A DNA stretch of 64,000 nt from a virus. The notes beneath the pieces were generated by a model that made no database searches, was not told the origin of the DNA, and saw only the letters and a program-made list of their open reading frames with translations. The stretch lies in the IMG/VR virus record IMGVR_UViG_3300038312_000193. One strand, written 5' to 3'. The translations under genes were made by a program, and so were the position numbers. This document shows positions 17,199 to 54,900 of this stretch, piece after piece (position 1 is the first letter of the stretch; each line of letters opens with the position of its first letter).

Positions 17199-17882
17199 TT
17201 ATATTATATTTTTGATTCTAGGTGTTATAATTTCATCTATGTATTTTGATTTAGTTTCGGTTGCCAGCCAATTACGATTATTTTTAATACAACTTTCAAT
17301 TTCACTACCTGAACCAGCAAAAGGAATATAAACTAAATCATTTTCATTTGAAGATTGAGTTATTAGGATATCAGCAATTTCTACACTTTTTTCAGATGGA
17401 TGTTTCCTTTTTTTACCTTTAGGGAATTTTACATCTATTAAATTAGATATGGAATTATTATTTACTTGTTTTGCCTTACCAATAGAATTTCTAAATAATA
17501 ATACAAATTCTATTTGTTTCATATACCAACCGAATATTACTTTATTACCTTTATTCAGAACTATTACATTCATCAACTTTAAACCACATTTATCTGCATT
17601 ATACAAAATATCTAATAAATTTTTATCATTACTATAAACATATAAATGAGCAGACGGTTTTAATATTCTTTTAAATTCACTCATATATTGATCAGCTTGA
17701 AGATAATCAAATAATTTTCTTTCTTCTTTATTTCTATAAAATATCCCACTTCTCATTTTCCCTGCTCCTCCACCAGCTTCTATTTTATATGGTGGGTCAG
17801 CGATTATTAAATCAATATATTCATTAGGCAATTGTTTCATAAATTCATTGCAATCTTCATTGTATATTTTATTAATTTCTAT
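17199..17882 (-). CDS. N6-A/N4-C DNA methyltransferase (beta class), probable ATA start
   Basis: ADPPY, HPSEKS, PFAGSGS. An in-frame upstream extension IEINKIYNEDCNEF begins with ATA after GAAAGGAG. Confidence 0.85.
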   Translation of the reverse strand: MEINKIYNEDCNEFMKQLPNEYIDLIIADPPYKIEAGGGAGKMRSGIFYRNKEERKLFDYLQADQYMSEFKRILKPSAHLYVYSNDKNLLDILYNADKCGLKLMNVIVLNKGNKVIFGWYMKQIEFVLLFRNSIGKAKQVNNNSISNLIDVKFPKGKKRKHPSEKSVEIADILITQSSNENDLVYIPFAGSGSEIESCIKNNRNWLATETKSKYIDEIITPRIKNII

Positions 17883-17974
17883 GTTTTTGACTCTCCTTTC
17901 TATAACTTTTAATCAAACAAAAATTTGGTGTTGTTTTTGTAATTTATAAATGCCATTATTTCGGACTTTGTATT

Positions 17975-18739
17975 TTATACTATTAATCTGTTTTTTGCAA
18001 TTTCACAATATTTTTCTTCCAATTCGATGCCAATACATTTTCTTTTTAAATTCCTTGATGCTAATAATGTTGTACCAGAACCGCAAGTGAAATCTAAAAT
18101 AAGTTCGTTTTCTTTTGTGTATGTATTAATTAAATATTCTATAAGAGGCACTGGTTTTTGTGTTGGATGTAAACCACTTTCAGAATTAAATTCTAAAATA
18201 TTATTCGGATAATTTGTATATTTTTGAGTATAATCATTTTGTCTGCTTGGACGTTCTTCAATTGTAGTCCCTTTTCTTGATTTGCCTTTATTGCTTTTTT
18301 GTTTATTAATTTCTATTAACCCTTGAGGATAATATTTCATCATGTTTTTACTGCCATTTGCTATGTTTCCAAAACTAAAACACATTACATCTTCATATTT
18401 TTTCATTGGACTATTTTTAGCATTTAGAAAATTACCTACTTTTGATTTAATCCATTTATAATCATATTTATAAAGTTTTTCATTGCTCAATCTTAAATGA
18501 CTACTAAATGGTTCTGTGCCAAATAAACAAATACATCCATCGTCTACTATTAAATTTTCAAGTCTATCCCATATTTCTTTATAATTAATTACACTATCCC
18601 ATTTACATGCTGTAGTCCCATAAGGTGGATCAGTGATTATTGCATCAAATTTTATACCCTTCTCAATAATCTTATCCATCACTTCTAAACAATCACCTTG
18701 AAATAGTCTTATGTATTCATCTTTATAGTATAATTGCAT
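17975..18739 (-). CDS. N6-A/N4-C DNA methyltransferase (beta class)
   Basis: GDCLE, TDPPYG, HPTQKP, LDFTCGSGTT. Confidence 0.92.
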   Translation of the reverse strand: MQLYYKDEYIRLFQGDCLEVMDKIIEKGIKFDAIITDPPYGTTACKWDSVINYKEIWDRLENLIVDDGCICLFGTEPFSSHLRLSNEKLYKYDYKWIKSKVGNFLNAKNSPMKKYEDVMCFSFGNIANGSKNMMKYYPQGLIEINKQKSNKGKSRKGTTIEERPSRQNDYTQKYTNYPNNILEFNSESGLHPTQKPVPLIEYLINTYTKENELILDFTCGSGTTLLASRNLKRKCIGIELEEKYCEIAKNRLIV

Positions 18740-18767
18740 CTATAATTAATTCAACCCTCCTTTTATA

Positions 18768-19346
18768 TTATATTTTTACATCACTTTCAACTTCATTACC
18801 CCATACGTCCCAACCTACTCTTTTATTTCTAGCAAACAATTCAATGTAAGGTGCATAACTAACTTTCTCTATCATTTCATACATCTCTTTTGGTTTTTCA
18901 GAATGTTCCCCTCTAGGAGCAACAAATACCGTTTTACCTTGTTGCCTTTTACTATTTAAAGTCTTATATGGCAAAACACCTTTTACACCAAACAAACATA
19001 CTTCATCAAGTCCACGGAAATATTGTCCTAATCCTGCATTTTCAAATTTAAAAGTTTTACCTTCTGAATCAAGACATTCTCCTTTTACCCATGTGATTTT
19101 TGTTTTATATGTAAATCCCCATGCTTTCATAACTTGTAAACCATCTTTAAGAAAATTATTTGTAACCCATAAGTATAAGTGACAATTATCATCTGCTAAA
19201 TTATGTATTGGTAAATTTATAATATCCTTTGTTTTCATTAATGGATAATGTCTATCTGCTCCACGTTTAATCTTTCCTCCACCTGATTCCATCCAAGGAG
19301 GATCGGCATATATTGTTTTATATTTATTAATCTTTTTTACCTCCAT
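18768..19346 (-). CDS. MT-A70 family adenine methyltransferase
   Basis: YADPPW, LYLWVTN, WGFTYKT, HSEKP, IELFAR...GWDVWGNE. Confidence 0.92.
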   Translation of the reverse strand: MEVKKINKYKTIYADPPWMESGGGKIKRGADRHYPLMKTKDIINLPIHNLADDNCHLYLWVTNNFLKDGLQVMKAWGFTYKTKITWVKGECLDSEGKTFKFENAGLGQYFRGLDEVCLFGVKGVLPYKTLNSKRQQGKTVFVAPRGEHSEKPKEMYEMIEKVSYAPYIELFARNKRVGWDVWGNEVESDVKI

Positions 19347-19438
19347 TTTTATATTATTGTTTTATTATGACTTGTGACAAAACCGAAGTTTTGTGTTGAT
19401 TTTTGGATTTATAAAGCCCAATATTACGGGATTCTTGT

Positions 19439-20182
19439 TTAAGCAATTTTGTGATTTTTGACTCTTTCTAAAGATAAATTATAATATTCTTCATCTGTTT
19501 CAAATCCTATGTAATTTCTTTTGGTATTTAAACAAGCTATCGCTGTTGTACCAGAACCCATACAATTATCTAAAACTAATTCATTTTCATTTGTGTATGT
19601 ATTAATTAAGTATTCAAATAATTCCACTGGTTTTTGAGTAGGATGAACTTTTTCTTTCTGATTTGCGTTACCGATTTCAATAATGCTTGTTGGATAGTAT
19701 TCATCATATATTTCTTTTTCTTTAGGTTGATTTATAGTGCCATAACAATCACTTAAAGAATAAAGTTTTCCACCTTTACTTCTCTGTTTTCCTTTTCTCA
19801 TAATTGGATTATATGTAGGCATTTTTTTATAAAAACATAATATTAATTCATGTCTTCTTAAAGGTTGTCTTTTGGCATTTAAAAAACCTGTTGATAATTT
19901 TTTATCCCATATTAAATCATATTTAAATAATTTATTATTACTATTAATTAATTTAGTTGCAAATGGTTGTGTAGCAGTAAAACACATCATCCCATTATCT
20001 TTTATAATTCTTTCATACTGCTCCCATAATGGTTCAAATGGAATTATCTCATCCCATTTATTTCTTGCCGTAACCCCATACGGCAAATCACATAAGATCA
20101 TATCAATACTTTTATCTGGTATTAAACACATACCATTTTCTTTAATACAATCTTCATTATAAATAGTATTCAATTCAATCAA
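19439..20182 (-). CDS. N6-A/N4-C DNA methyltransferase (beta class)
   Basis: CDLPYG, HPTQKP, LDNCMGSGTT. Confidence 0.92.
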   Translation of the reverse strand: MIELNTIYNEDCIKENGMCLIPDKSIDMILCDLPYGVTARNKWDEIIPFEPLWEQYERIIKDNGMMCFTATQPFATKLINSNNKLFKYDLIWDKKLSTGFLNAKRQPLRRHELILCFYKKMPTYNPIMRKGKQRSKGGKLYSLSDCYGTINQPKEKEIYDEYYPTSIIEIGNANQKEKVHPTQKPVELFEYLINTYTNENELVLDNCMGSGTTAIACLNTKRNYIGFETDEEYYNLSLERVKNHKIA

Positions 20183-20491
20183 TTTATGTATTATTATCCT
20201 CCTTATTTTTATTTTATGCTTTTAATAGTTTTTTTTCAGAAAATCATGCCTCACAAACGCCCAAATTTCGGACTTCATTTCTGCACCAAATAGAGAATTT
20301 ATCAACACTCCTCTTTAAATGCCTCGTAACACCCTTTTGTATATTCAATTATTTCCATGTCTTCACAATCATTACAATTAAGACTACAAGAGTATTGCCC
20401 ATCTGTGATTTCTTCTACGTCAGCACACCAACTGCCGTATGTATTACACCATTTAGCCATATTTACCTCCAATCATTATGAAACATAGTTT

Positions 20492-20908
20492 TTATGCTGA
20501 TATTTCTTTTCTTACTCTCATAAGAATTTTGCCCAACATATTCTTACCTCTACCCCTGCACACTCCCCAATATATATCATTCCATGTGTTTCCTTCTATT
20601 AACTCCTCATTACCAGTATCAACAAGTCTTTGTCTTAAATCTTGGTTACGAGTAAACTTATCCTTAACACATTGATACATCACTTCGTCTTTAATATCTT
20701 CCCAATCATTTCTAAGTAAAACATTTCTACCTTTCTTCTTTGCTGTTGAAGGGTCAAGTTGGCAAAATTGTTTTCTACGTTCTATATCTTTTACTTTAGC
20801 AGATTGAAAAGCAGCTTCATTATTTTGGTAAAGTAAATCTTCAAATATTACTGGTGCAGAATAAAAATTACTAAGAAAATAATATTTGCCTTTAAATTCA
20901 TTAATCAT
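20492..20908 (-). CDS. NADAR (YbiA-like) family protein
   Basis: FLSNFY, EAAFQSAK, KFTRN, LIEGNTWNDIYWG, GKNMLGKILM. Confidence 0.9.
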   Translation of the reverse strand: MINEFKGKYYFLSNFYSAPVIFEDLLYQNNEAAFQSAKVKDIERRKQFCQLDPSTAKKKGRNVLLRNDWEDIKDEVMYQCVKDKFTRNQDLRQRLVDTGNEELIEGNTWNDIYWGVCRGRGKNMLGKILMRVRKEISA

Positions 20909-21033: not shown

Positions 21034-22761
21034 TTATATTATTTTTTGTAGTTTCTCCATATATCCCCTATTAACTATTATTATATTATTATCAAAATTT
21101 AGATGATAAAGTTTAAATCCATTGTAATCATAAATATTGGTTATAACTGCTTTAACATTATTATAATTAATTTCTTTTATGTAATCTCCAATAATGTGTT
21201 GTACTTTAATCTTATTTATAATGAATATATCTCCAATTTCATATTCTTCTCTATCCCATAGTAACTTTCTATCTTCAGGAGAAGCAAAATCTAAATATCC
21301 ATTAAAAGTTCTTCCGTATATTTTATTAATTTTTATTTTACGCCATTCACAATATAAATTATCATCAAAATTCATAAGATCACAATAAGTCTCTTTTAGA
21401 GAATCATTTTTATTACCAATAGCTAAAATATCTCTATTATTATAATTAACCGTATAATATTTTCCATCATCCATTTCTAAAAGATATCCCGCTTTAATAT
21501 CATCTATATTGTACATACCTTTCTCCTTTCTTAACCAATTCGATTTTTGGTTTTAATTTTATAGATTACCAATATTTTATTTCCCCATTTTTTCTTACCT
21601 ACTATTTTTATATTATTTTTTAGTTATAAGTTCTTTTTTTAATCTTTCTACTTCTTCTTCAACAATCATAATAATACATGGTTCACTATCTTCATCATTG
21701 TTAAACTTAACTAATTCCAATTCTTTACCGTTATATTCATTACCATAGATTTTATACATAACCAAATAATCTCCATCATCACAAAGAATTTTATGACTAT
21801 TAGAAAATCTCTTTTTACATTCTTCGTATGTCATATTAATATATCTCCTTTATTTAATTCTCCTGTACAATATTATTATAATCAGTTTCAACGACACATT
21901 TTTCATCAACTCTAATTTGTACTAAATTACATTCACTATCCGCACCTACCACCTTACCTTTAACCCCTTTTAGGATACCATTTAAAATTGTTGCTTCTTG
22001 ATTGACTTTTACAGCCATTATTAATCCTCCTTTACATAATTGTATTTTTTATTTTCTTCTCTTAACGGACACCAATCTGGACTAGATTTTTTATAAACAT
22101 TCATTGGAATAGTTAATGCATCTAAAAAATCATCATCAAAAGTATTACCGTAAGTATCATAATCTGGGACAACATATTCACATACATATAAATATCCGTT
22201 TAAACCGTAATCCTCACAGTTTTCACAGGTCTTGCATTTTGGTGTTTTCATAATATATCATCCTTATTTATTTCTTTATGCTCTTTTTTAAACATATAAT
22301 ATTCATGCTTATTTCCGTCAAATAAAACTCTTTTACAATTTTTACAAGTAAGTTTATAATAGCCTGATTCATAAAAATATTCATCAGGCTCGACACGAAA
22401 TTCTTCTTTCAAATTTTTACAACTACATTTTTTATTATTCTTCATCTTCTATTTCTCCATCTTCCCCTCTAACATTCTTTTTTACAGCTTCCCATAATAA
22501 ATCACATAATTCTATTTGATTATTAGTTAATCGTGCCTCACCCGTTTCAAATAATAATGCTATAGAACATCCATAATCTTCATCTAAAATGATCTGTATA
22601 GGAATATCTTGTGAATAATTATCTCTTAAATATTCTAACATTTCTCCAATAGTAAACAGTTTTCTTTTGGTAATATTAGAATTAGTATCCCATTGCTTTA
22701 AAAATACTTTTTCTTTATAATTCAATTCATCCCATTGTTCTTTTGTAATTTGTTGTTTCAT
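21034..22761 (-). CDS. Run of small hypothetical genes (21034-21516, 21613-21834, 22021-22251, 22248-22445, 22435-22761)
   Basis: Co-oriented ORFs, most with an RBS. No recognisable domains. Confidence 0.6.
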
Positions 22762-22806
22762 ATTAATTCCTTTTTAATTCATTTTTCTAATAACTTTCAT
22801 ATGTAA

Positions 22807-23165
22807 TATAGAAAGTAATAGTTACCCGAAATACCTACTACTTTCTATAACCGTACCAACCAATACGGATTAGTCTTTTGACAGCAGGGACACGATATTG
22901 TGTTTACTGTTTTTGCTCGACCACAACTATCACTTTCGGGGAGTAATGGTTGAGTTTGATGTTTGATCCACCCTCAGTCTCCGTCAAGGAAACCTACTTC
23001 CCCCTCTTAGTTATAAGAGTCCCCAGATTTTTAGTTTTGTCTGCTTCCCACCCTTTATTCAGACCATGATTGAAATAACAGAGTTTTTTGAATCTCAATC
23101 ATCCCGTATATAATTCCACTACTTTTAATAGAATTTTTTAGCCACTCTGTCATTAGCTAAGTAGT
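22807..23165 (-). ncRNA. Unclassified structured ncRNA (about 360 nt)
   Basis: ORF-free, GC-enriched island with about 10 hairpins containing G-U pairs, a predicted loop-loop pairing, an upstream TATAAT and a terminal 15-bp hairpin (22807-22849). Confidence 0.7.
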
Positions 23166-23271
23166 TTCATTATATACACTCACCAAATTAACTTATAATA
23201 AAATAAAATAAGTATATCAAACTTTATTATGTATTTTTATTATAATTTTTTATATTATAGTTTTAATATAT

Positions 23272-23418
23272 TTAACTAATCTTATTAATTCCATAAAATA
23301 TTACATTAATAATTGCAAAACCAATATTAAGTACCGTTCCACAAATATTTTCTTTTGCCGCAAAATAAGCTGCTAATAGTATACATGCGACTATTAATAT
23401 TAAACTTATAGTAGACAT
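23272..23418 (-). CDS. Small membrane protein (48 aa)
   Basis: Manual translation MSTISLILIVACILLAAYFAAKENICGTVLNIGFAIINVIFYGINKIS after GGAGGGGG. Promoter at 23472-23500. Confidence 0.55.
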   Translation of the reverse strand: MSTISLILIVACILLAAYFAAKENICGTVLNIGFAIINVIFYGINKIS

Positions 23419-23599
23419 ATTTTCCCCCCTCCCTGCTTTTAAATATTATTAAGATCAAGCTCTCCTCTATTAGTATAATATCATATGTATTATTTGTCAA
23501 TATTTATTTTTTGCTTTTAATGAAAGTTTTTTATAAAATTCATAGTTCAAGAATCCCAATATTTAGGCATCCATTTCATGATAGAACTAGAATTTTATG

Positions 23600-31413: not shown

Positions 31414-31803
31414 TTACTGCCATTTATTATTAATATACTTTTGCCCGTAATTATTTTGAGTAAAACATAATAATTCTCTCTCAGTAGAAAAAATTAATGA
31501 ATTTTTATTTATCCATTCATTATAATTATTTTCAATTTTACATAATCTCCATTGTTCGGGATATTTTAATATACTCACTAGATTTTCTTGTCCTTTTTCT
31601 ATTTGTTTAAGAAGGCGGTAATTTGTTTTTTCATATAATAAACGATTTAATGTATCGAAACTTGTTTCTTTTATTAATTTTTCTAATATCTCTATTTGTG
31701 AATTAAGATAAGAGATATGTTTGAAATTATATCCCTTATCTATTAATCCATCTTTAAGATATGTTATTATTTTATATCTTCTCCACATTGTTACTAGAAT
31801 CAT
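31414..31803 (-). CDS. Hypothetical protein
   Basis: ORF overlapping the stop of the upstream gene. Confidence 0.55.
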   Translation of the reverse strand: MILVTMWRRYKIITYLKDGLIDKGYNFKHISYLNSQIEILEKLIKETSFDTLNRLLYEKTNYRLLKQIEKGQENLVSILKYPEQWRLCKIENNYNEWINKNSLIFSTERELLCFTQNNYGQKYINNKWQ

Positions 31804-32825
31804 ACACGCAACAACTCCTTATACTGATAAAACATATCTTTTATTACGTACCAGTAAGAAGATTCTTTATTGCTTGTATTTTCTTTAACACCATAGTTAT
31901 ATCGGACACAAACATCATCAAAATCTCTATCGGTTATTTCACCTTTTTCTTTATAAATATCAAAACACATTTGTAACATCCCCGAAAAATAGATGCTGGA
32001 GTATGTTAAATACCTATTATCACATGCTTCTTGAATCTTTCTCATCCTAGAATTTAATAAACTAGGTGTAAATATTTCAAACTTATTTTTCCCTGGTTTT
32101 CTAAGAACATATCTATTTATTAATTCATCTGTTTTTGACTTCCCAGTTTTATTGATAATACTCTTTCTAGGATCGGGTATTTTAGGGTTATTAGTCATTT
32201 CACCATTATTTTCTATATAATACTCTTGTTCATATGCCTCTCTAATTACATCAAAAATAAAATTAGGAACATTATCTAATATCCTAGACACACCATCATT
32301 TTGTCTTAAAATAAGAATATTTTCTTTTTCATTAATATCATCAATTGTTAAATTAATCACTTCTTCCATTGTACCATCGTCTATAGTTCTACCTCTTACG
32401 CCTATATAAGGCAACCATAAAATTAGTTGGTCTTGATAATTAAATAAGGTGTTTTGGTACTGAATCATCTTTTCTCTAGGGATATATTTGCTTAACAATG
32501 CTTGACGATGAACAAAATCATTAATGTCTATATATCTTGCTCTATTTTCCATGTGAGATACAATTTTTTTACTCACGCAAAAATCAATATAATTCACCAG
32601 AATAGATTTATTCTTACCTGCGCCACGTTTTGAAGTGTTACGCAAAGTGGCAAACATTTCATTTAACTCAGGAATACTAAGATTATAAACTTGTTTACCA
32701 ACTTGATTCTCGTAATTATCAAATTCACGCAACACAAAAGCATCAGAATCAGCAGTTCCAGTTGGTTTACTTTGTAGATATTCTTGTTTAATTTCGTTAT
32801 TAACAGAAAATTCAATATTTGCCAT
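31800..32825 (-). CDS. Tyrosine-recombinase-fold protein, probably a catalytically dead repressor (SPbeta YopR/MrpR-like)
   Basis: DQLILWLPYIGVRG...EEVINLTIDDI is integrase box I-like. HxxR is replaced by YSSIYFSG. Lies next to a DGQHR gene. Confidence 0.65.
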   Translation of the reverse strand: MANIEFSVNNEIKQEYLQSKPTGTADSDAFVLREFDNYENQVGKQVYNLSIPELNEMFATLRNTSKRGAGKNKSILVNYIDFCVSKKIVSHMENRARYIDINDFVHRQALLSKYIPREKMIQYQNTLFNYQDQLILWLPYIGVRGRTIDDGTMEEVINLTIDDINEKENILILRQNDGVSRILDNVPNFIFDVIREAYEQEYYIENNGEMTNNPKIPDPRKSIINKTGKSKTDELINRYVLRKPGKNKFEIFTPSLLNSRMRKIQEACDNRYLTYSSIYFSGMLQMCFDIYKEKGEITDRDFDDVCVRYNYGVKENTSNKESSYWYVIKDMFYQYKELLRV

Positions 32826-32828
32826 TGA

Positions 32829-34148
32829 TTACACCTCCTTAAAGAGTTTGTAGATTTTGTTTTTAGTGGATTTACCAATCTTATTGTCTTTGATTATCCC
32901 TATTTCACGCCACATAGGATTGTCTGTACTAAAATTGATAAGCTTAATTTTTTCTTTAAGAATTTCTTTCCAATCCTTATTATCCTTTAGTATCGCTGAC
33001 AATGCAATATATCCATAGAACATATTCATGTTATTGATATAAGAAATTTTCTTTATCTCATAAGGGTTAGAAATAAACTCTTCTTGATAATAACCCATAA
33101 GATAGTTTGTGAATTCAGTTATCCATTTTGCTATATCATCACGATTCATTGCTGAGTCTAGGTCTGTATAGTTGTCTTTGATTGCTTCAGCAAGGATTGG
33201 TTTAGTTGTTAAGGCACGATCTGATTTTACGAATGCATCAGTATCTTTAGCAACATTGGATAAGTCTCCACGACTATCCATTATTTTATCTAATACAAGA
33301 TTTTCAGGTTTAGAATAGTCTTTAGTAGTTATTACTTCAGTTTTAATTTTTGTCTGCTTGTTGATCTGCACCATTGCAGAATGACTTTCAATTTCTGATA
33401 GATTAGTAATATCAATAGGCCAAGTAAAATCTATATCAGGATTTTTTGACATTACTAAGGCTGAAGCAGACTTGCGATGCTGACCGTCAAAAAGATTCAA
33501 CACCGTTCCTTCTCTCAGAGTTAACATTCTAGTCTTAGGATTATAGATAGGTTTATTTTCATCTTTTACAATGTTAATTTTAATATGATCTGGATAATAT
33601 GTTCCAGCAAGCATATTTTCCGCAATCTCTTCAACCTTTTTAGGGTCTTCATTTATCCTAGTTGATTTCTTTGTTACTTTCAGCCCACGCTGTGCGTTAG
33701 GGTTCCAAAGTAATACATTATATAATTCATTAAATTGCTGTATAGTAAGTTTAGTCTGCCACTGTTTACCAGGAATAATCTCTTGTACATCTTTTAAATT
33801 ATATGGGAAAATTTCATCTGATTCTTTTTCTTCAGAATAATTTTCCCACTGGCTGATTTCAACTGGAGTAAAGTAATTTTGATAATCATTTAATACATTC
33901 ATATTTTTTTCTTTTAATGCTTTGTTAAGAGCAAGGGTAAAGATAAAGAGTAATTGAATATCCTCTTCTGAATCTGTTAAGACATCTAAATCAAGGTTCT
34001 CAGAAAAAAGCCAAGCAGCTCTTAACGATGATAAGTTGCGATTTTTAAACTCATCCATCACGAACTGTTTGACATCATTCATATACCCTACTTCACGCAG
34101 GATGCCCCTAAGTTTATTTTTTAATTGCTGTTCTTTATCTTTTAACAT
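32829..34148 (-). CDS. DGQHR/DndB-like ParB-fold protein (SPbeta YopQ-like)
   Basis: WNPNAQRG and LFDGQHRK motifs. Confidence 0.75.
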   Translation of the reverse strand: MLKDKEQQLKNKLRGILREVGYMNDVKQFVMDEFKNRNLSSLRAAWLFSENLDLDVLTDSEEDIQLLFIFTLALNKALKEKNMNVLNDYQNYFTPVEISQWENYSEEKESDEIFPYNLKDVQEIIPGKQWQTKLTIQQFNELYNVLLWNPNAQRGLKVTKKSTRINEDPKKVEEIAENMLAGTYYPDHIKINIVKDENKPIYNPKTRMLTLREGTVLNLFDGQHRKSASALVMSKNPDIDFTWPIDITNLSEIESHSAMVQINKQTKIKTEVITTKDYSKPENLVLDKIMDSRGDLSNVAKDTDAFVKSDRALTTKPILAEAIKDNYTDLDSAMNRDDIAKWITEFTNYLMGYYQEEFISNPYEIKKISYINNMNMFYGYIALSAILKDNKDWKEILKEKIKLINFSTDNPMWREIGIIKDNKIGKSTKNKIYKLFKEV

Positions 34149-35009: not shown

Positions 35010-35175
35010 CTGCTACTCAAAATATAGACAAATATACTCATTATCCATATCGAGATTTTTACTGCTTCTTCCTGTATGCTTTCATACTGATAAATCAGAT
35101 ACTACTCACAAGTTCTTGTACAGTCCACAGTCGTAAATTCCCGACTAGCCATCGGTACACACTTATGATAGCTTT
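35010..35175 (-). ncRNA. omegaRNA (TnpB guide scaffold) region
   Basis: GTACCGATGGCTAGTCGGGAATTTACGACTGTGGA...GAAGCAGTAA downstream of tnpB, typical of tnpB 3' ends. Confidence 0.65.
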
Positions 35176-35176
35176 A

Positions 35177-36338
35177 TTATGCTATTTTATAAGTTTTAAC
35201 ATCTCTCAAATTAAGACTTGCATTATAATCTCTATCTGCATGATATCCACAATCACAAATATATTCTCTATCAGATAATTTTAAATCTGATTTAATTTGA
35301 CCACATTCATGACATAATTTACTTGATGGATACCATCTATCTACAATTCTTAATTCAATACCATTCTGGTTACATTTGTTTTTTAGTTTAACTCTAAATA
35401 TATTAAACCCTTGCTTAGATATTGCTTTTGAAAGATGTCTATTCTTCATCATTCCTTTAACATTTAAATCTTCAATTGTAATATAAGAAGGTTTGGTTTT
35501 TACCAACTCACTTACAGTTTTATTTAAATAATTTTCTCTGATATTAGATAGAGTTTGATGAATTTTTTGTACTTTGACTATTTGTTTTTGAATATTTTGC
35601 CTAGTAGCAGTACCTCCTTCCTTTTTATTTCTTAATTTTAAACTCTCATATTTCCTTGAAAGTTTTGTTTGTTCTCTTTTTAATTTCTTTTCTAATCGTT
35701 TTACTCTTTTAGTTTTATTAATGTTGGGTTTGATAATACTATTAGATATCACCGCAAATTCTTTTAATCCAAGATCAATTCCTAACCCAAAATTATTAAG
35801 TTGTGGTTTGATAATTTCTTCTACTTCAATTAAAACTGACACATAATACCTATCTACTTTCATTGATACAGTGCCACTAATAACTTTTGCATTTGTAGGT
35901 ATATACGCAAATTCCTTAACTCTTACCCATTTTAAAGTAGGTATTTTTATTCTATGCCTTTCAATAGTCCAATCAGTTATATTATTTTTAGGGAAATAAG
36001 CTTTTATATTTTGATCTTTTTTCTTTTTAAATCTAGGAAATCCAGATTGTTTCTTAAAAAATCTCTTAAAAGCCTTTTCTCCGTTCATAATTGATTGTTT
36101 TACTGCCTTACTACCAACATTTTTAATCCATTTATATTCTGGATTATTAGGTATATATTCATTATTTAACCACTTAGAAAACTCTATTCCTGAAACAAAA
36201 CGTTTTTTCTTTTTCATAAACCTCTTTATTATATGCTAAGTAGAAATTATAAACAAATCTACATACTCCAAGAGTGTGATGAATTAATTGCTTTTGCTCA
36301 TGAGAAGGGTTAATTTCTACTTTATAGGTTTTGAGCAT
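35177..36338 (-). pseudogene. tnpB: TnpB RNA-guided nuclease with a frameshift near codon 44
   Basis: GIDLG, IEDLNVKGM, YPSSKLCHECG, DRDYNAS. The N-terminus MLKTYKVEINPS... (ATG 36338) is in another frame because of one extra A in GAAAAAGAAAAAACG. Confidence 0.85.
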
Positions 36339-37453: not shown

Positions 37454-38044
37454 CTAATTTAATTTTATTTCCTCCAATATTTCTATCTGATTATTACTAA
37501 ACACCACAATAGTCTGTTCTTGCAAATTTAAAAAATCTTCTAAATCACAATATCCAGTTATGTAATTTTCATAACCATAATAAGAAATACTATATAAATC
37601 AATTCCATCTTCTTCTAATTTTAATTTATATTTGTGACCTCTAGGGGTAACATAGGTAGTCTCACCAGTAGAATATAATTCTTGCTCATTTATTTGTGGA
37701 ATATCATTAAATATAATGCCATCATAACCCATAGATTGAAGGCGTAATCTTGTAGCATCAGCTACACTTCTATAACCTTCTAAATTAGATTTCCATAATT
37801 GTTTTACTAACTTATTAATAACTTCATGTGGTGCAGGGTTATTTAGTGTTACTATACACTTCTTTAAATAATTAGGATTTCTAAATGAAGGAGATGTATA
37901 TTTATCGCTGCTAAACCAGAACCCATTATAGTAAGCATCTGTTTCTTCAGCTTTGATTTTATTTACGTCAAAATATGTAAATGATTCTACAGAAGCATGG
38001 TATAAGGTATATTGCATTTCCTCACTCCTTTTTATTTTTGACAT
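37454..38044 (-). CDS. ART-PolyVal-like ADP-ribosyltransferase-fold protein
   Basis: LYHAS...FD...GFWFSSD...GYDGIIF...EQTIVVFSNNQI. Confidence 0.55.
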   Translation of the reverse strand: MSKIKRSEEMQYTLYHASVESFTYFDVNKIKAEETDAYYNGFWFSSDKYTSPSFRNPNYLKKCIVTLNNPAPHEVINKLVKQLWKSNLEGYRSVADATRLRLQSMGYDGIIFNDIPQINEQELYSTGETTYVTPRGHKYKLKLEEDGIDLYSISYYGYENYITGYCDLEDFLNLQEQTIVVFSNNQIEILEEIKLN

Positions 38045-38185
38045 TCACATATTTGGAAAGTCTCATGTAATCTTTCATCTTCTTCTACAATAATCGTTAT
38101 AACTCCTTCTCCATTGCAAACTGGACAAGTTTTCATTTAAATATCACTCCTTTCTTTATATTATATTATACTTTTAATAGTTTAA

Positions 38186-39160
38186 TTAATCAAGTTGTTT
38201 CAAATAATTATCAATCTCTTTTTTAATTTGTGTTGCAATTGCTTTGGATAATGGAACTGGTACTGCATTAGCAACCATTTGTATTTTTTCATTTAAAGTA
38301 CCAACAAAAACATGATCATCGGGGAAACCTTGAATCCTAGCCCCTTCTCGGACTGATATAATCCTATTTTCTTCTGGATGAATTATTACTGACTTACCAA
38401 AATGCACTAAAGTATTTGACGGTTTATCATTATGTAGTCTACTATATAAAGTAGATTGAGTCTTTGATTTATGCAAATTTATTTTATATTTTTCAGGTAA
38501 GCATTCCCAATTACCACCAGGAGGAATATAAGAAATTTTATGTATAGTCTCTTCTTTACTGTTTCTTCTATCTAGTTGATTAGAAACATTATCATTTAAT
38601 CCTTTGAACGCATCTCTTATAGTCAAATATTTAATTAATGGCTCTGGATGTTTTATAATTCCTATCCTGCTGCCAATAAATATAGCTCTCTTTCGTATCT
38701 GTGCTACTCCATAATCATAAGCATTTAAAACTTTAACTTCAATATGATAATCTGGCAATCGTTCTTTAAACTCTTTAATAAATAGACCATCTAAAGCAGT
38801 TATTACTTGGGGAACATTTTCATAAACAAACACCAAAGGATTAACTTCTTGAACCTTATGTATATAACTTAAAACTAAACTATTTTTAGGATTATCTAAT
38901 AATTTTGAACCATTCTTTCTATTGGTATTAGATAAACTCTGACATGGTGAACCTCCTATGACAACATCAGCGAATCCTTTATTAAATTTTAAATTATTAA
39001 CATCATCACAAATAACTTTATGATTAAAATTATGTTCTAATGTCTTGCAGCAATCTTTATTAAAATCTGTACTTAGTATCAAGTTAAATCCTGCCTGTTT
39101 AAAACCTAGATCAAGGCCACCACCTCCTGAAAATAGTCCTAATACTGTATATTTTTTTAT
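38186..39160 (-). CDS. C5-cytosine DNA methyltransferase, probable ATA start
   Basis: Motif I LFSGGGG lies upstream of the track start, in frame from ATA at 39160. GSPCQ, YENV, QIRKRAI, ANAVPV. Confidence 0.9.
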   Translation of the reverse strand: MKKYTVLGLFSGGGGLDLGFKQAGFNLILSTDFNKDCCKTLEHNFNHKVICDDVNNLKFNKGFADVVIGGSPCQSLSNTNRKNGSKLLDNPKNSLVLSYIHKVQEVNPLVFVYENVPQVITALDGLFIKEFKERLPDYHIEVKVLNAYDYGVAQIRKRAIFIGSRIGIIKHPEPLIKYLTIRDAFKGLNDNVSNQLDRRNSKEETIHKISYIPPGGNWECLPEKYKINLHKSKTQSTLYSRLHNDKPSNTLVHFGKSVIIHPEENRIISVREGARIQGFPDDHVFVGTLNEKIQMVANAVPVPLSKAIATQIKKEIDNYLKQLD

Positions 39161-51900: not shown

Positions 51901-54900
51901 CGCCAGTTCTTCATTCCAATCTAATTTTAATTCATAATCTTCAATTTGGTATTCGAGAAATTGCAAGGATTTTAAAACCTGTTCTACGGTCTTGTAATCG
52001 TCTGTTATTTCTCTTTGCATCATTACCTTATAAATAAAATCATCCTTTGTATATACCTGTTCTGCCTGATCATCTTTATATCTGTTATTCCATGATTTAA
52101 CATTCAAGCAATGTAAATAAAATAACTGTTCGGCTCTTTCTTCTGGAAATTCTGTATGTCTTTGTATAAATTCCATCTCACACATTCTAAACATTTGGAT
52201 ACCGTTTAGTAATCTTGTGTATCCTTTTAAATCATCAATCAAAATAACACTCATTGTTATACCTCCTTTTCTATCGCCCAATCTGTCCATGAATCTCTTT
52301 CAATCACAAATAACTGGTTGTTAATCTTTATCTCTATTCCGTCTTTTAACGGACAATCTGGTTCACCTGTAAATGTATTCCAATGATTGACATAAACACC
52401 TTTTGAATATCTATCATTTATATGTCTACTGTACAATCTGCTTGTATTCTTATCTTTGTATATCTCCCTGCAATAACCTTCTTGGTTTTCGATTTTGATT
52501 AAATCTAACATTCGCATACACTCCTTATATACTTTATTTATATTATTAATATGATTAATATATAATAAAATACATACTGTCAACATGTAATTATTTTGAT
52601 TTTTATACTTCATATTTAAAGGGATGTTACAACATCATAACACCCCTTATAACTTCTATGCTATTTCTTGTTCTCCTTGCACCTGTTCTTGTTTTCCTTG
52701 CCATTCTTCAAATAATTCCTGTAATCCATTTAACCTTCCATTAACTCTTTCTTTTTTTGTTGATCCTGCGCCACAATTATTTTTATAAGCATCTCCTGGT
52801 TTACTGTTTTTACTGTACCATGTAATGAAGTTTGTAGATTCATGTTTACTCTTTTGGGTATTTAAAAATCCTACCATAGACGTTATGTTAATCTTAGTGC
52901 AGAATTTATTATATTTATTGTTAAAGCTATCTGCTATTACTGTAAATAATTCCTCTGTGCGGTTTAATACTTCATCTGTTATTGTGTTGGTCACAAAGAA
53001 TTTTTCAACATCCTTTGCTGCAAAGGTACAAAAATCAAGTCCTGATACTAAGATAATTGATTGAAGTATAGTCATTTGTTTATCTGATTTCTTTATTGCT
53101 CCTGGTGTAAAGTGAGCAACATCGGTAAATAGTTTATGTTCTGTTATCATTCTCTTAACAAATTCTCGTACATTTTTCTTAGCTGATACTAAAGCAAGAT
53201 GCTCTTTACTTACGACTTTACCATTATTCAAACGATAAAAAATATCATTTACGATTGATTCTTCATCATCATTATCGTCAAGTTCGATAAGTTTAAAGGC
53301 CAACATGAAACTTTTGATTTCATCCTGCACTTCTTCTGGTAGTTCTGAAAATTTCTTACCAGAGATATTGAATTTTTCACCTGTAGATTCAAGTTTGATT
53401 TGTGGGAGTTCTGTAAGCTGCCATTCATCGTTAATAAAAGAGTGAATAATAGTAAGACGTTGGAGGCCATCAATAATACTGTAAGTATTCCCTGATTCTT
53501 GTTTCTCTTGTATGGCATAAATATCAGGCACAAACATTTCTAAAATAGAATGGATTAACAATGACTTATCTTCATTTTTCCATTGTCCTGCTGGTCTTTG
53601 CACAGGATTATCAAAAACTATAGTTCCTTTATTAATCATTGTGCTAACCTGCTTTACTGACCATGATAAACTTTTTCTTTGCATTCCGAACAACTCCTTT
53701 TAATTAATTTCTATCTTATGTTTATTTTATACCTTTGGTTTCATGTTGTCAACATTAAAATAAGAATAAACGATAATTATTTTTTATCCTGTTGGTTCAA
53801 GATCATGCGAAATACACCAGGAACAAAATACATCTATATTAGTTCCTATTCCTTGTTGCTGTCTTACTTGTTGGTAATTATTCCAATCACAATACCAACT
53901 ACCAGCTTTGTAATAGGTCTTAATTCCGTTTACATAGCGGATTTTTAGATTACTAGTTGACTTTGTTTTGTTGCTCTTGTTTTTTGTTCTCATTTTATAC
54001 ATCTCCTTTTTATTTTTTGTATTTTAATCCTTCTTAATATGTCGGCTCTGTCATTGTCGGCACATTAAGCAGGATTAAACCTGCTTATAATTTATATTAT
54101 TGTTATGTCAAAATTCCACTCAATACAATCCTTTGTTAAATATCCATTAATATGATCTCCTTCTCTTCCTGTTAATTTCCAGCCTATTTGTTTAAAAAAC
54201 TCATAGTATTTATAAAAATATTCATTATTTGACTTTTTAAATATTTCCCATTTTTTACCGTTTGCTTTATCTGTAATAGTTTTAATCAACATTTTTTAAC
54301 CTCCTCTTATAACTCGTTACCTAATTGTCATTTGGTTTAATTATATTATTTGTTTTGCTAATGTTTCCGTTAATGGGAATCTAACTTGCTTAAATACATT
54401 GTCGTAAAACCTTGGATAATTAATATAGTCTGGAATAATCTCGCTACCATCAGGTAATAAAACTGATTGACTATAACTGCCCAATGACTTGATGCATTCC
54501 TCAATGCTGTTATAGACTTTTATACAATCAAAAGTATTGTGTTCAATCTCATAGGGTGATCTGTTATTCCATGCCCAATCATTAATTTCTCTGATCCGCA
54601 TTTTACCATCATAAAAAGCTTGATAATGCATTATTATCCTTCCTTTCCTTCTCCTAAAATTTTACTGTACATGAAATTTGCTTTCTATCATGTTATTTTA
54701 ATGTAATTAATGCCATTCGATTAAGATCAATTGTTAATATATTGAAATGATCTAGTTTTTTAATTAAATCTGCATCATACCAGATAGGTTCTCCGTTTTC
54801 TTCAATCTCTTTTGTTATTCTGTTAATCCAATATTGCTTATTAAATACTTTAGTTTTCAATTTGTTCAACTCCTTATTTGTTTAATTCGTTATATTGATT

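Follow-up and report, generated by a model that had tools for sequence, protein, structure and literature searches.

The window, a 64,000-nucleotide stretch of viral DNA (IMG/VR record IMGVR_UViG_3300038312_000193), probably carries a gene-like unit, complete in itself, for a structured non-coding RNA that is specific to one strand and about 385 nt long; this RNA would belong to an uncatalogued family and work as a trans-acting particle. An earlier note on this DNA had proposed an unrecognised structured RNA of ~360 nt on the minus strand, and the proposal was borne out by the absence of an Rfam match, by the G-U pairs of the fold and by compensatory changes. The conserved unit is wider than the span given there, 22807-23165, and covers ~22795-23180.

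The RNA locus and the phage that carries it

The RNA locus is held in a gap of 510 nt between a 48-codon ORF and a 108-codon ORF, both on the minus strand, which is the orientation of all the genes in the window. The GC content of the locus is 0.40 as against 0.18-0.28 in its surroundings, the genome lying at 22-27%. The following features were placed at the locus and in its flanks.

~22795-23180, minus strand: conserved RNA module of about 385 nt, delimited by the divergence points of the variants X4 and X6
23272-23418, minus strand: 48-codon ORF upstream of the RNA, very hydrophobic, with two apparent membrane segments
22435-22761, minus strand: 108-codon ORF, the next gene downstream of the RNA, its start 34 nt beyond the module edge at 22795
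23192-23220, minus strand: candidate sigma-70-type promoter TTGATA-17-TATAAG, read from the sequence, with a predicted start near 23185
23169-23174, minus strand: alternative -10 element TATAAT, within the 5' strand of helix P0, with a predicted start near 23163

None of the six frames is open at the locus beyond 48 codons, counted from stop to stop. A peptide from the 32-codon AUG frame at 23153 was rejected because it has no SD sequence, and because the diverged copy of the RNA, contig L002, has no start codon there and carries a 1-nt deletion that shifts the frame. The minus strand folds with an MFE of -96.4 kcal/mol (z -3.60), a value that none of 100 shuffles equalled, and the full module on this strand reaches -103.2 kcal/mol (z -3.77). 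L002 folded alone gave a z of -3.43 and the same hairpins were recovered. It had been claimed earlier that mismatches in the stems are mostly G-U on the minus strand, and about 12 G-U pairs were indeed counted in the minus-strand fold. These pairs would be C.A on the plus strand, which points to the minus strand as the RNA strand. The locus is non-coding, folds better than chance and is a candidate transcript.

It is hardly credible that the locus is instead a DNA-level element, such as an origin, a recombination site or a packaging site, or a chance GC-rich spacer without RNA function. Such a reading could draw on the very AT-rich stretch (GC 0.18) that adjoins the locus and on the plus strand, which folds more weakly than the minus strand and still somewhat better than shuffles (z -2.65). 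However, G-U pairs and the G-U intermediates in the compensatory series make sense only in an RNA of the minus strand, whole stems have been exchanged beneath preserved loops, and the locus holds neither iterons nor repeats.

A search of the whole window with Infernal cmscan against Rfam 15, which the earlier note had proposed as a check, returned at gathering thresholds only a RAGATH-18 RNA at 35059-35131, and no family reached threshold at the locus. A permissive search (E up to 10) of 22600-23400 and of L002 gave only sub-threshold noise from miRNA, snoRNA and CRISPR-repeat models. There was no covariance-model match at gathering score to GOLLD, ROOL, OLE, raiA or HEARO in the window, the locus or L002, and no model match to tmRNA, RNase P RNA, SRP RNA, 6S RNA, T-box or riboswitch leaders in the window or L002. 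ARAGORN found no tRNA and no tmRNA in the window. The earlier reading that hallmarks of tmRNA, RNase P, SRP, T-box, raiA and OLE are missing therefore stands.

Several other known classes were considered and rejected. A group I or group II intron has no model match; the flanks are separate complete ORFs (stop at 23272, start at 22761), and the flanking genes differ among copies of the RNA. A TnpB or IscB guide RNA (omega or reRNA) was set aside, as the TnpB gene of the window is 12 kb away and has its own RAGATH-18 RNA at 35059-35131. For a type I antitoxin RNA, stretches of at least 10 nt complementary to the coding strand of the window numbered 38 as against 39 in shuffles; with regard to the hydrophobic 48-aa ORF in particular, there is no complementarity, and the upstream flank of X6 is different. 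A type III toxin-antitoxin RNA would not fit a locus without repeats and with neighbour genes that are not constant. For a phi29-type pRNA there is no model match, and the genome is large with a DnaE-type polymerase.

The window belongs to a large AT-rich phage whose DnaE-type polymerase shares 55.7% identity with its counterpart in Clostridium phage c-st. The host genome of the RNA is a large phage related to phage c-st, and its source is anaerobic fermenters; by k-mer content the stretch is present in fermentation metagenomes and partly in digester, wastewater and landfill runs. No RNA library was listed among the public sequencing runs that match the stretch by k-mer content. A contig of 224 nt, X20, lies inside the RNA; its library type (RNA-Seq/cDNA) is a guess only, and X20 was used solely as a sequence variant and left out of the evidence on transcription.

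The 16-40 kb arm around the locus codes for DNA methylases, NADAR, an ADP-ribosyltransferase domain, HNH nucleases, an MrpR-type recombinase and TnpB, and the RNA sits in this accessory, counter-defence-rich arm. Three N6/N4 methylases, an MT-A70 methylase, a C5 methylase, NADAR and an ART-PolyVal ADP-ribosyltransferase domain were located at 17199-20908 and 37454-39082 (minus strand), and a GmrSD-like protein at 52656-53693. The MrpR-type tyrosine recombinase lies beside a DndB-like protein (31800-34148, minus strand), and this pair fits a plasmid-prophage lifestyle as in phage c-st. The TnpB gene (35177-36217, minus strand) has OrfB_IS605 and Cas12f1-like TNB domains; directly after it comes the RAGATH-18 RNA (35059-35131, minus strand, 70.3 bits), and the two look like an ordinary TnpB with its own guide-RNA scaffold. 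The immediate neighbours of the RNA are small ORFs of no known family, with no adjacent reverse transcriptase or Cas protein, and the gene context points to no partner protein or ligand.

With regard to transcription, the candidate promoter TTGATA-17-TATAAG was not listed by the consensus promoter scan because the scan requires T at position 6 of the -10 element. A near-consensus promoter, TTGACA-17-TATACT (11/12), was observed at 23472-23500 (minus strand), ahead of the 48-codon ORF; with no terminator in between, its transcripts would enter the RNA module.

Relatives of the RNA and conservation of its helices

When the locus was compared by BLASTN (distant mode) with the phages of GenBank and the plasmids of PLSDB, nothing matched. 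In IMG/VR (six motifs), the JGI metagenomes and the genomes of GTDB, the hits of exact-motif scans were all due to chance or to coding sequence, as checked by BLAST and by eye; the window itself is absent from those collections. A search with the stop-to-stop frames of the RNA as pseudo-proteins gave nothing useful. One true diverged copy, the ENA metagenome contig L002, was reached through relatives of the downstream ORF. Its first ~345 nt align to the RNA with a mean column identity of 85%, from the contig end (~23166) through the 3' end of the RNA, and a 95%-identical relative of the downstream ORF follows. Three further partial variants, from contigs of four runs, were compared at the locus: X4, from an anaerobic digester, is ~97% identical to it; X6 covers the 5' domain and matches 23039-23180; X20 covers 22823-23004, its 5' continuation being more diverged. 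X5, X6 and X20 were read only where the contigs cover the locus. The comparison set, two near-full copies and three partial close variants, is too small for statistics of R-scape grade.

The helices and loops, all on the minus strand, are listed below with their state in L002.

23178-23169 / 23114-23105, minus strand: P0, UGUAUAUAAU / AUUAUAUACG, predicted; ten canonical pairs, in the full-module MFE fold
23165-23160 / 23123-23118, minus strand: P1a, ACUACU/AGUAGU; in L002 ACUAUU/AGUAGU (C-G to U-G)
23159-23155 / 23143-23139, minus strand: P1b, UAGC/GCUA; in L002 UAGU/ACUA (C-G to U-A)
inside P1b, minus strand: loop 1, AAUGACAGAGU, enclosed by P1a and P1b (23118-23165)
23112-23135, minus strand: P2 hairpin, AAUUCUAUUA/UAGUGGAAUU, present in the window; 5' arm deleted in L002
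23066-23102, minus strand: P3 hairpin, AUGAUUGAGAU/AUUUCAAUCAU, 11 bp in the window; 8 canonical pairs in L002, with G-U to A-U
apex of P3, minus strand: loop 3, UCAAAAAACUCUGUU, 15 nt; core AAAAACUCUGUU identical in window and L002
23039-23064, minus strand: P4 hairpin with loop GGUGGGAA, GUCUG/CAGAC; in L002 CUAUAG/CUAUAG
23004-23019, minus strand: P5 hairpin, CUCUUA/UAAGAG; in L002 UUCUC/GAGAA, two double changes
23003-22998 / 22991-22986, minus strand: P6, GGGGAA/UUCCUU; 5 of 6 pairs kept in L002
22976-22994, minus strand: P6alt with a 5-nt loop, GGUUUCC-UUGAC-GGAGACU; in L002 GGUAUU-AUAAA-AAUGCC; absent from the earlier reading
22954-22948, minus strand: CUCAACC, invariant, just 5' of inner P7
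22947-22942 / 22934-22929, minus strand: inner P7 hairpin with loop CCCCGAA, in the region 22929-22954
22881-22910, minus strand: P8a/P8b bulged hairpin (ACAGUA/UGCUGU plus ACAC/GUGU), invariant
22851-22868, minus strand: P9 hairpin (CCGUAUU/GGUACGG) with a GGUU loop; U-G to C-G in L002
22808-22848, minus strand: P10 terminal hairpin, 14 bp with a 4-bp tip, followed by no U-tract

All ten stems listed in the earlier note are present on the minus strand where it had put them, as verified by script; P1 reads UAGCU/GGCUA, and P7 has one C.A mismatch. In the comparison P2 is not conserved, the outer half of P7 is contradicted, and P6 is left ambiguous. The terminal hairpin is also real, measuring 14 bp with a 4-bp tip and not the 15 bp reported.

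P0, which is predicted from the MFE fold, would close the 5' domain. Its 5' strand lies beyond the end of the L002 contig and contains TATAAT, so that it could be a -10 element instead. P2 competes with P0 and P1a, which together would form one long 5' hairpin with P1b at the tip. In X4 and X6, P1 carries a C-G to U-G change and one broken pair, the terminal pair of P1b, disrupted by U23159C. L002 has a wholly different P4 stem around the same loop core, GGUGGGAA, and P5 in X20 (CUCUUG/CAGGAG) differs by a double change and a single one. P6 and P6alt cannot form together; the comparison is compatible with either, and both MFE folds choose P6alt.

In inner P7, a U-G pair has become C-G in L002, X4 and X20, and a C-G pair has become U-A in L002. 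Outer P7 (CAACC/AGUUG) is broken by changes common to L002, X4 and X20. P8 is uninformative in the comparison because it is invariant. P10 in L002 shows two double changes (G-C to U-G and A-U to G-C) and two single ones. With no U-tract after it, P10 is not a canonical terminator, and a terminator scan of the minus strand found none after P10; the RNA may therefore belong to a longer transcript.

Taken together, the 3' domain (inner P7, P8, P9, P10) has 41 of 41 pairs canonical in both the window and L002, and three of these pairs have changed on both sides and four on one. When the partners were slid by 1-3 columns, only 23-52% were paired; a two-sequence shuffle control for this domain was weak (71/500). 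P7-P10 is highly conserved (95% identity), and the 5' and central domain is fast-evolving. In the latter, P1b, P4, P5 and P6alt show double-sided changes between window and L002 with their loops kept. X4 and X20 add compatible changes, and X20 adds one more compensatory pair, in P5. Over all copies, compensatory changes on both sides of a pair number about 12 and compatible changes on one side at least 8, versus the one terminal-pair disruption. The loops ACAGAG, AAAAACUCUGUU, GGUGGGAA, GUAGG and CCCCGAA are fixed on these changing stems. There is little or no informative variation in P0, P8 and the two candidate pseudoknots described below.

The collection of homologs for covariation, suggested in the earlier note, has thus lent support to most helices and spoken against P2 and outer P7. 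The aligned copies show that most helices are kept by compensatory change, which indicates that the folding is under selection.

Loop contacts and the heptamer ATAACAG

Two long-range contacts were considered. The complementarity of loop 1 and loop 3, pointed out in the earlier note, was confirmed: 23153-23145 would pair with 23083-23075 (minus strand) in a run of 8 loop nucleotides, which one nucleotide of a stem extends to 9. When the two loops were shuffled with their composition kept, 63 of 20000 trials gave as good a pairing (p about 0.003-0.007), and no run among the other loop pairs of the RNA exceeds 6. The window pairs AUGACAGAG with CUCUGUUAU with one G-U, and in L002 the match of AUAACAGAG with CUCUGUUAU is perfect, the G-U having become A-U. 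Loop 1 has thus changed between the two copies, and loop 3 has not; no change in its core AAAAACUCUGUU is listed in those X4, X5 and X6 contigs that cover the loop. The contact may be intramolecular, forming a pseudoknot, or intermolecular. Contacts of ROOL and GOLLD that had at first been taken for tertiary ones were later shown to bridge separate molecules (PMC12286853).

The second candidate pseudoknot came from RNAalifold and would join GGUGGG of the P4 loop to CUCAACC (23047-23052 / 22954-22948, minus strand). The strands are identical in L002, and U22953C in X4 turns a G-U into a G-C. This modelled contact is suggestive and is kept as a candidate only.

Loop 3 drew attention for another reason as well. 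On the coding strand of the window no 7-mer is as strongly over-represented as ATAACAG, with 54 occurrences as against 10.7 expected, and its exact complement is present in the apical loop of P3. The heptamer has a strand bias of 54:5 (coding versus other) and is concentrated at 40-63 kb (40247-62983, as CTGTTAT on the plus strand). It is about twofold enriched between genes, and within ORFs it occurs only in phases 0 and 1.

It could be possible that loop 3, through CUCUGUUAU, pairs as a seed with AUAACAG(A) in the ~54 copies of the 40-63 kb arm. One RNA would then act on many transcripts of the arm, at the level of translation, decay or processing, and loop 1 would be a mimic that masks loop 3. 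This reading is a special case of the preferred explanation and not a strict alternative to it, and on present evidence it seems rather unlikely. In its favour, the top over-represented and strand-biased 7-mer matches an invariant loop; loop 1 varies while loop 3 is fixed, as if under an extra constraint; the longest complementarity between RNA and window, of 12 nt (tied), falls with loop 3 on a heptamer site; and five related phages that lack the RNA have no heptamer enrichment. However, the match was noticed post hoc, and one CTGTTAT on the gene strand in 386 nt has a chance of ~0.03. The pairing covers only 7-8 nt and is not lengthened by the sequence on either side of the 54 sites. Only 9 of them are within 25 nt of a start codon; the sites, found both inside and between genes, are not tied to starts, and the motif could have its effect on the DNA itself. 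That RNA and heptamer occur together is effectively a single observation.

It is quite doubtful that the RNA and the heptamer form one system, a phage riboregulator that is global and addressed by a motif, that would control a temporal class of genes with loop 1 as its built-in competitor. The predicted targets of loop 3, a proposal that is doubtful to much the same degree, would be transcripts containing AUAACAGA.

Portability, probable role and comparison with known RNAs

The flanks of the RNA differ from copy to copy. Similarity of X4 to the window runs from beyond 23300 down to 22795 and then gives way to unrelated sequence, and X6 is unrelated to the window upstream of 23180; from these two break points the conserved unit is wider than 22807-23165. 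In X4 an ORF-like start lies within ~15 nt of the module end and belongs to a gene that differs from the one in the window. Relatives of the downstream ORF were found on one contig with the RNA (L002) and on three without it, and one relative lacking the RNA abuts a methylase gene instead. The RNA moves as one block among different neighbours in different phages, which makes it a portable RNA gene and not a leader. Relatives of the upstream 127-aa ORF (L030-L037, 83-90% identity) were observed to have entirely different small ORFs downstream. The arm appears to be a mosaic of exchangeable small cassettes, of which the RNA is one.

The distribution is narrow. A covariance model of the 3' domain, R1, found in the window only the locus itself (205 bits), and 0 of 49 IMG/VR records of phages with related DnaE had a match, 15 of those records being at least 90% complete. 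Eight contigs with relatives of the upstream 127-aa ORF, one of them from the sample of L002, all lack the RNA. The 48-aa ORF product is identical on 8 contigs, which are only identical copies of the same phage. Judged from these searches, the RNA is a rare accessory mobile module of a narrow lineage.

The RNA could in principle be a cis-acting element of a polycistronic transcript, such as a structured leader, a riboswitch-like sensor or a processing or stability element. No terminator follows P10, the next ORF begins on the same strand 34 nt past 22795, and the ORF-like start of X4 is closer still; these observations would suit such an element. However, X4 and the window have different genes downstream of the RNA, and X6 has another upstream flank. 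There is no alternative terminator or antiterminator and no pairing that would sequester an SD sequence, no riboswitch or leader family of Rfam matches, and 385 nt with ten helices far exceed the usual leaders. A cis-acting role is therefore very doubtful. Its change of neighbours, its size and the missing expression platform all speak against a leader or riboswitch.

Stems that change freely beneath loops that stay fixed suggest an RNA that works through its three-dimensional surface, and for this reason the trans-acting particle is favoured. The RNA would act in trans as a compact folded particle and not as the leader of the next gene, with the fixed loops as its working surfaces. Pairing of loop 1 with loop 3 over 8-9 bp would either close the 5' domain or join molecules head to tail, and pairing of the P4 loop with the invariant CUCAACC would tie the central domain to the 3' domain. 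Its likeliest role during infection could be that of a scaffold or decoy for another RNA or for a protein.

It is rare for bacteria and phages to carry a large structured RNA of no known function, and the few that have been studied (GOLLD, ROOL, OLE) proved to build unexpected assemblies of RNA only. The RNA described here is a previously uncatalogued, orphan ornate phage non-coding RNA with a fold partly supported by covariation. This compact example has clear domains, fixed loops and two candidate contacts at long range, and its size would suit probing and cryo-EM. Concrete ideas on function come from its place in the anti-defence-rich arm, its portability and the match of loop 3 to a motif. 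The narrow distribution limits its general importance unless the link to the motif proves real.

The pRNA of the phi29 type links its molecules hand in hand through two loops that differ in sequence and are complementary to each other. It is ~120-174 nt long with a loop complementarity of 4 nt, and occurs in small protein-primed podophages. The RNA of the window is like it in being a phage RNA with two non-identical, mutually complementary loops. Unlike the phi29 system, it belongs to a large genome with a DnaE-type polymerase, no link to a packaging gene was seen, and Rfam gave no match.

The comparison with GOLLD and ROOL has more to offer. ROOL is ~580 nt long, and the RNA here, unlike both, has ~385 nt in a window that holds no tRNA genes. 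It is also unlike them in lacking a covariance-model match even at E up to 10, and in its very narrow distribution among related phage records (0 of 49). GOLLD often exceeds 800 nt (PMC12286853). Like GOLLD and ROOL, the RNA is encoded by a phage, is large for a bacterial non-coding RNA, has many helices and is not tied to one neighbour gene. It also resembles them in a conserved kissing-loop complementarity, which in those RNAs forms intermolecular bridges.
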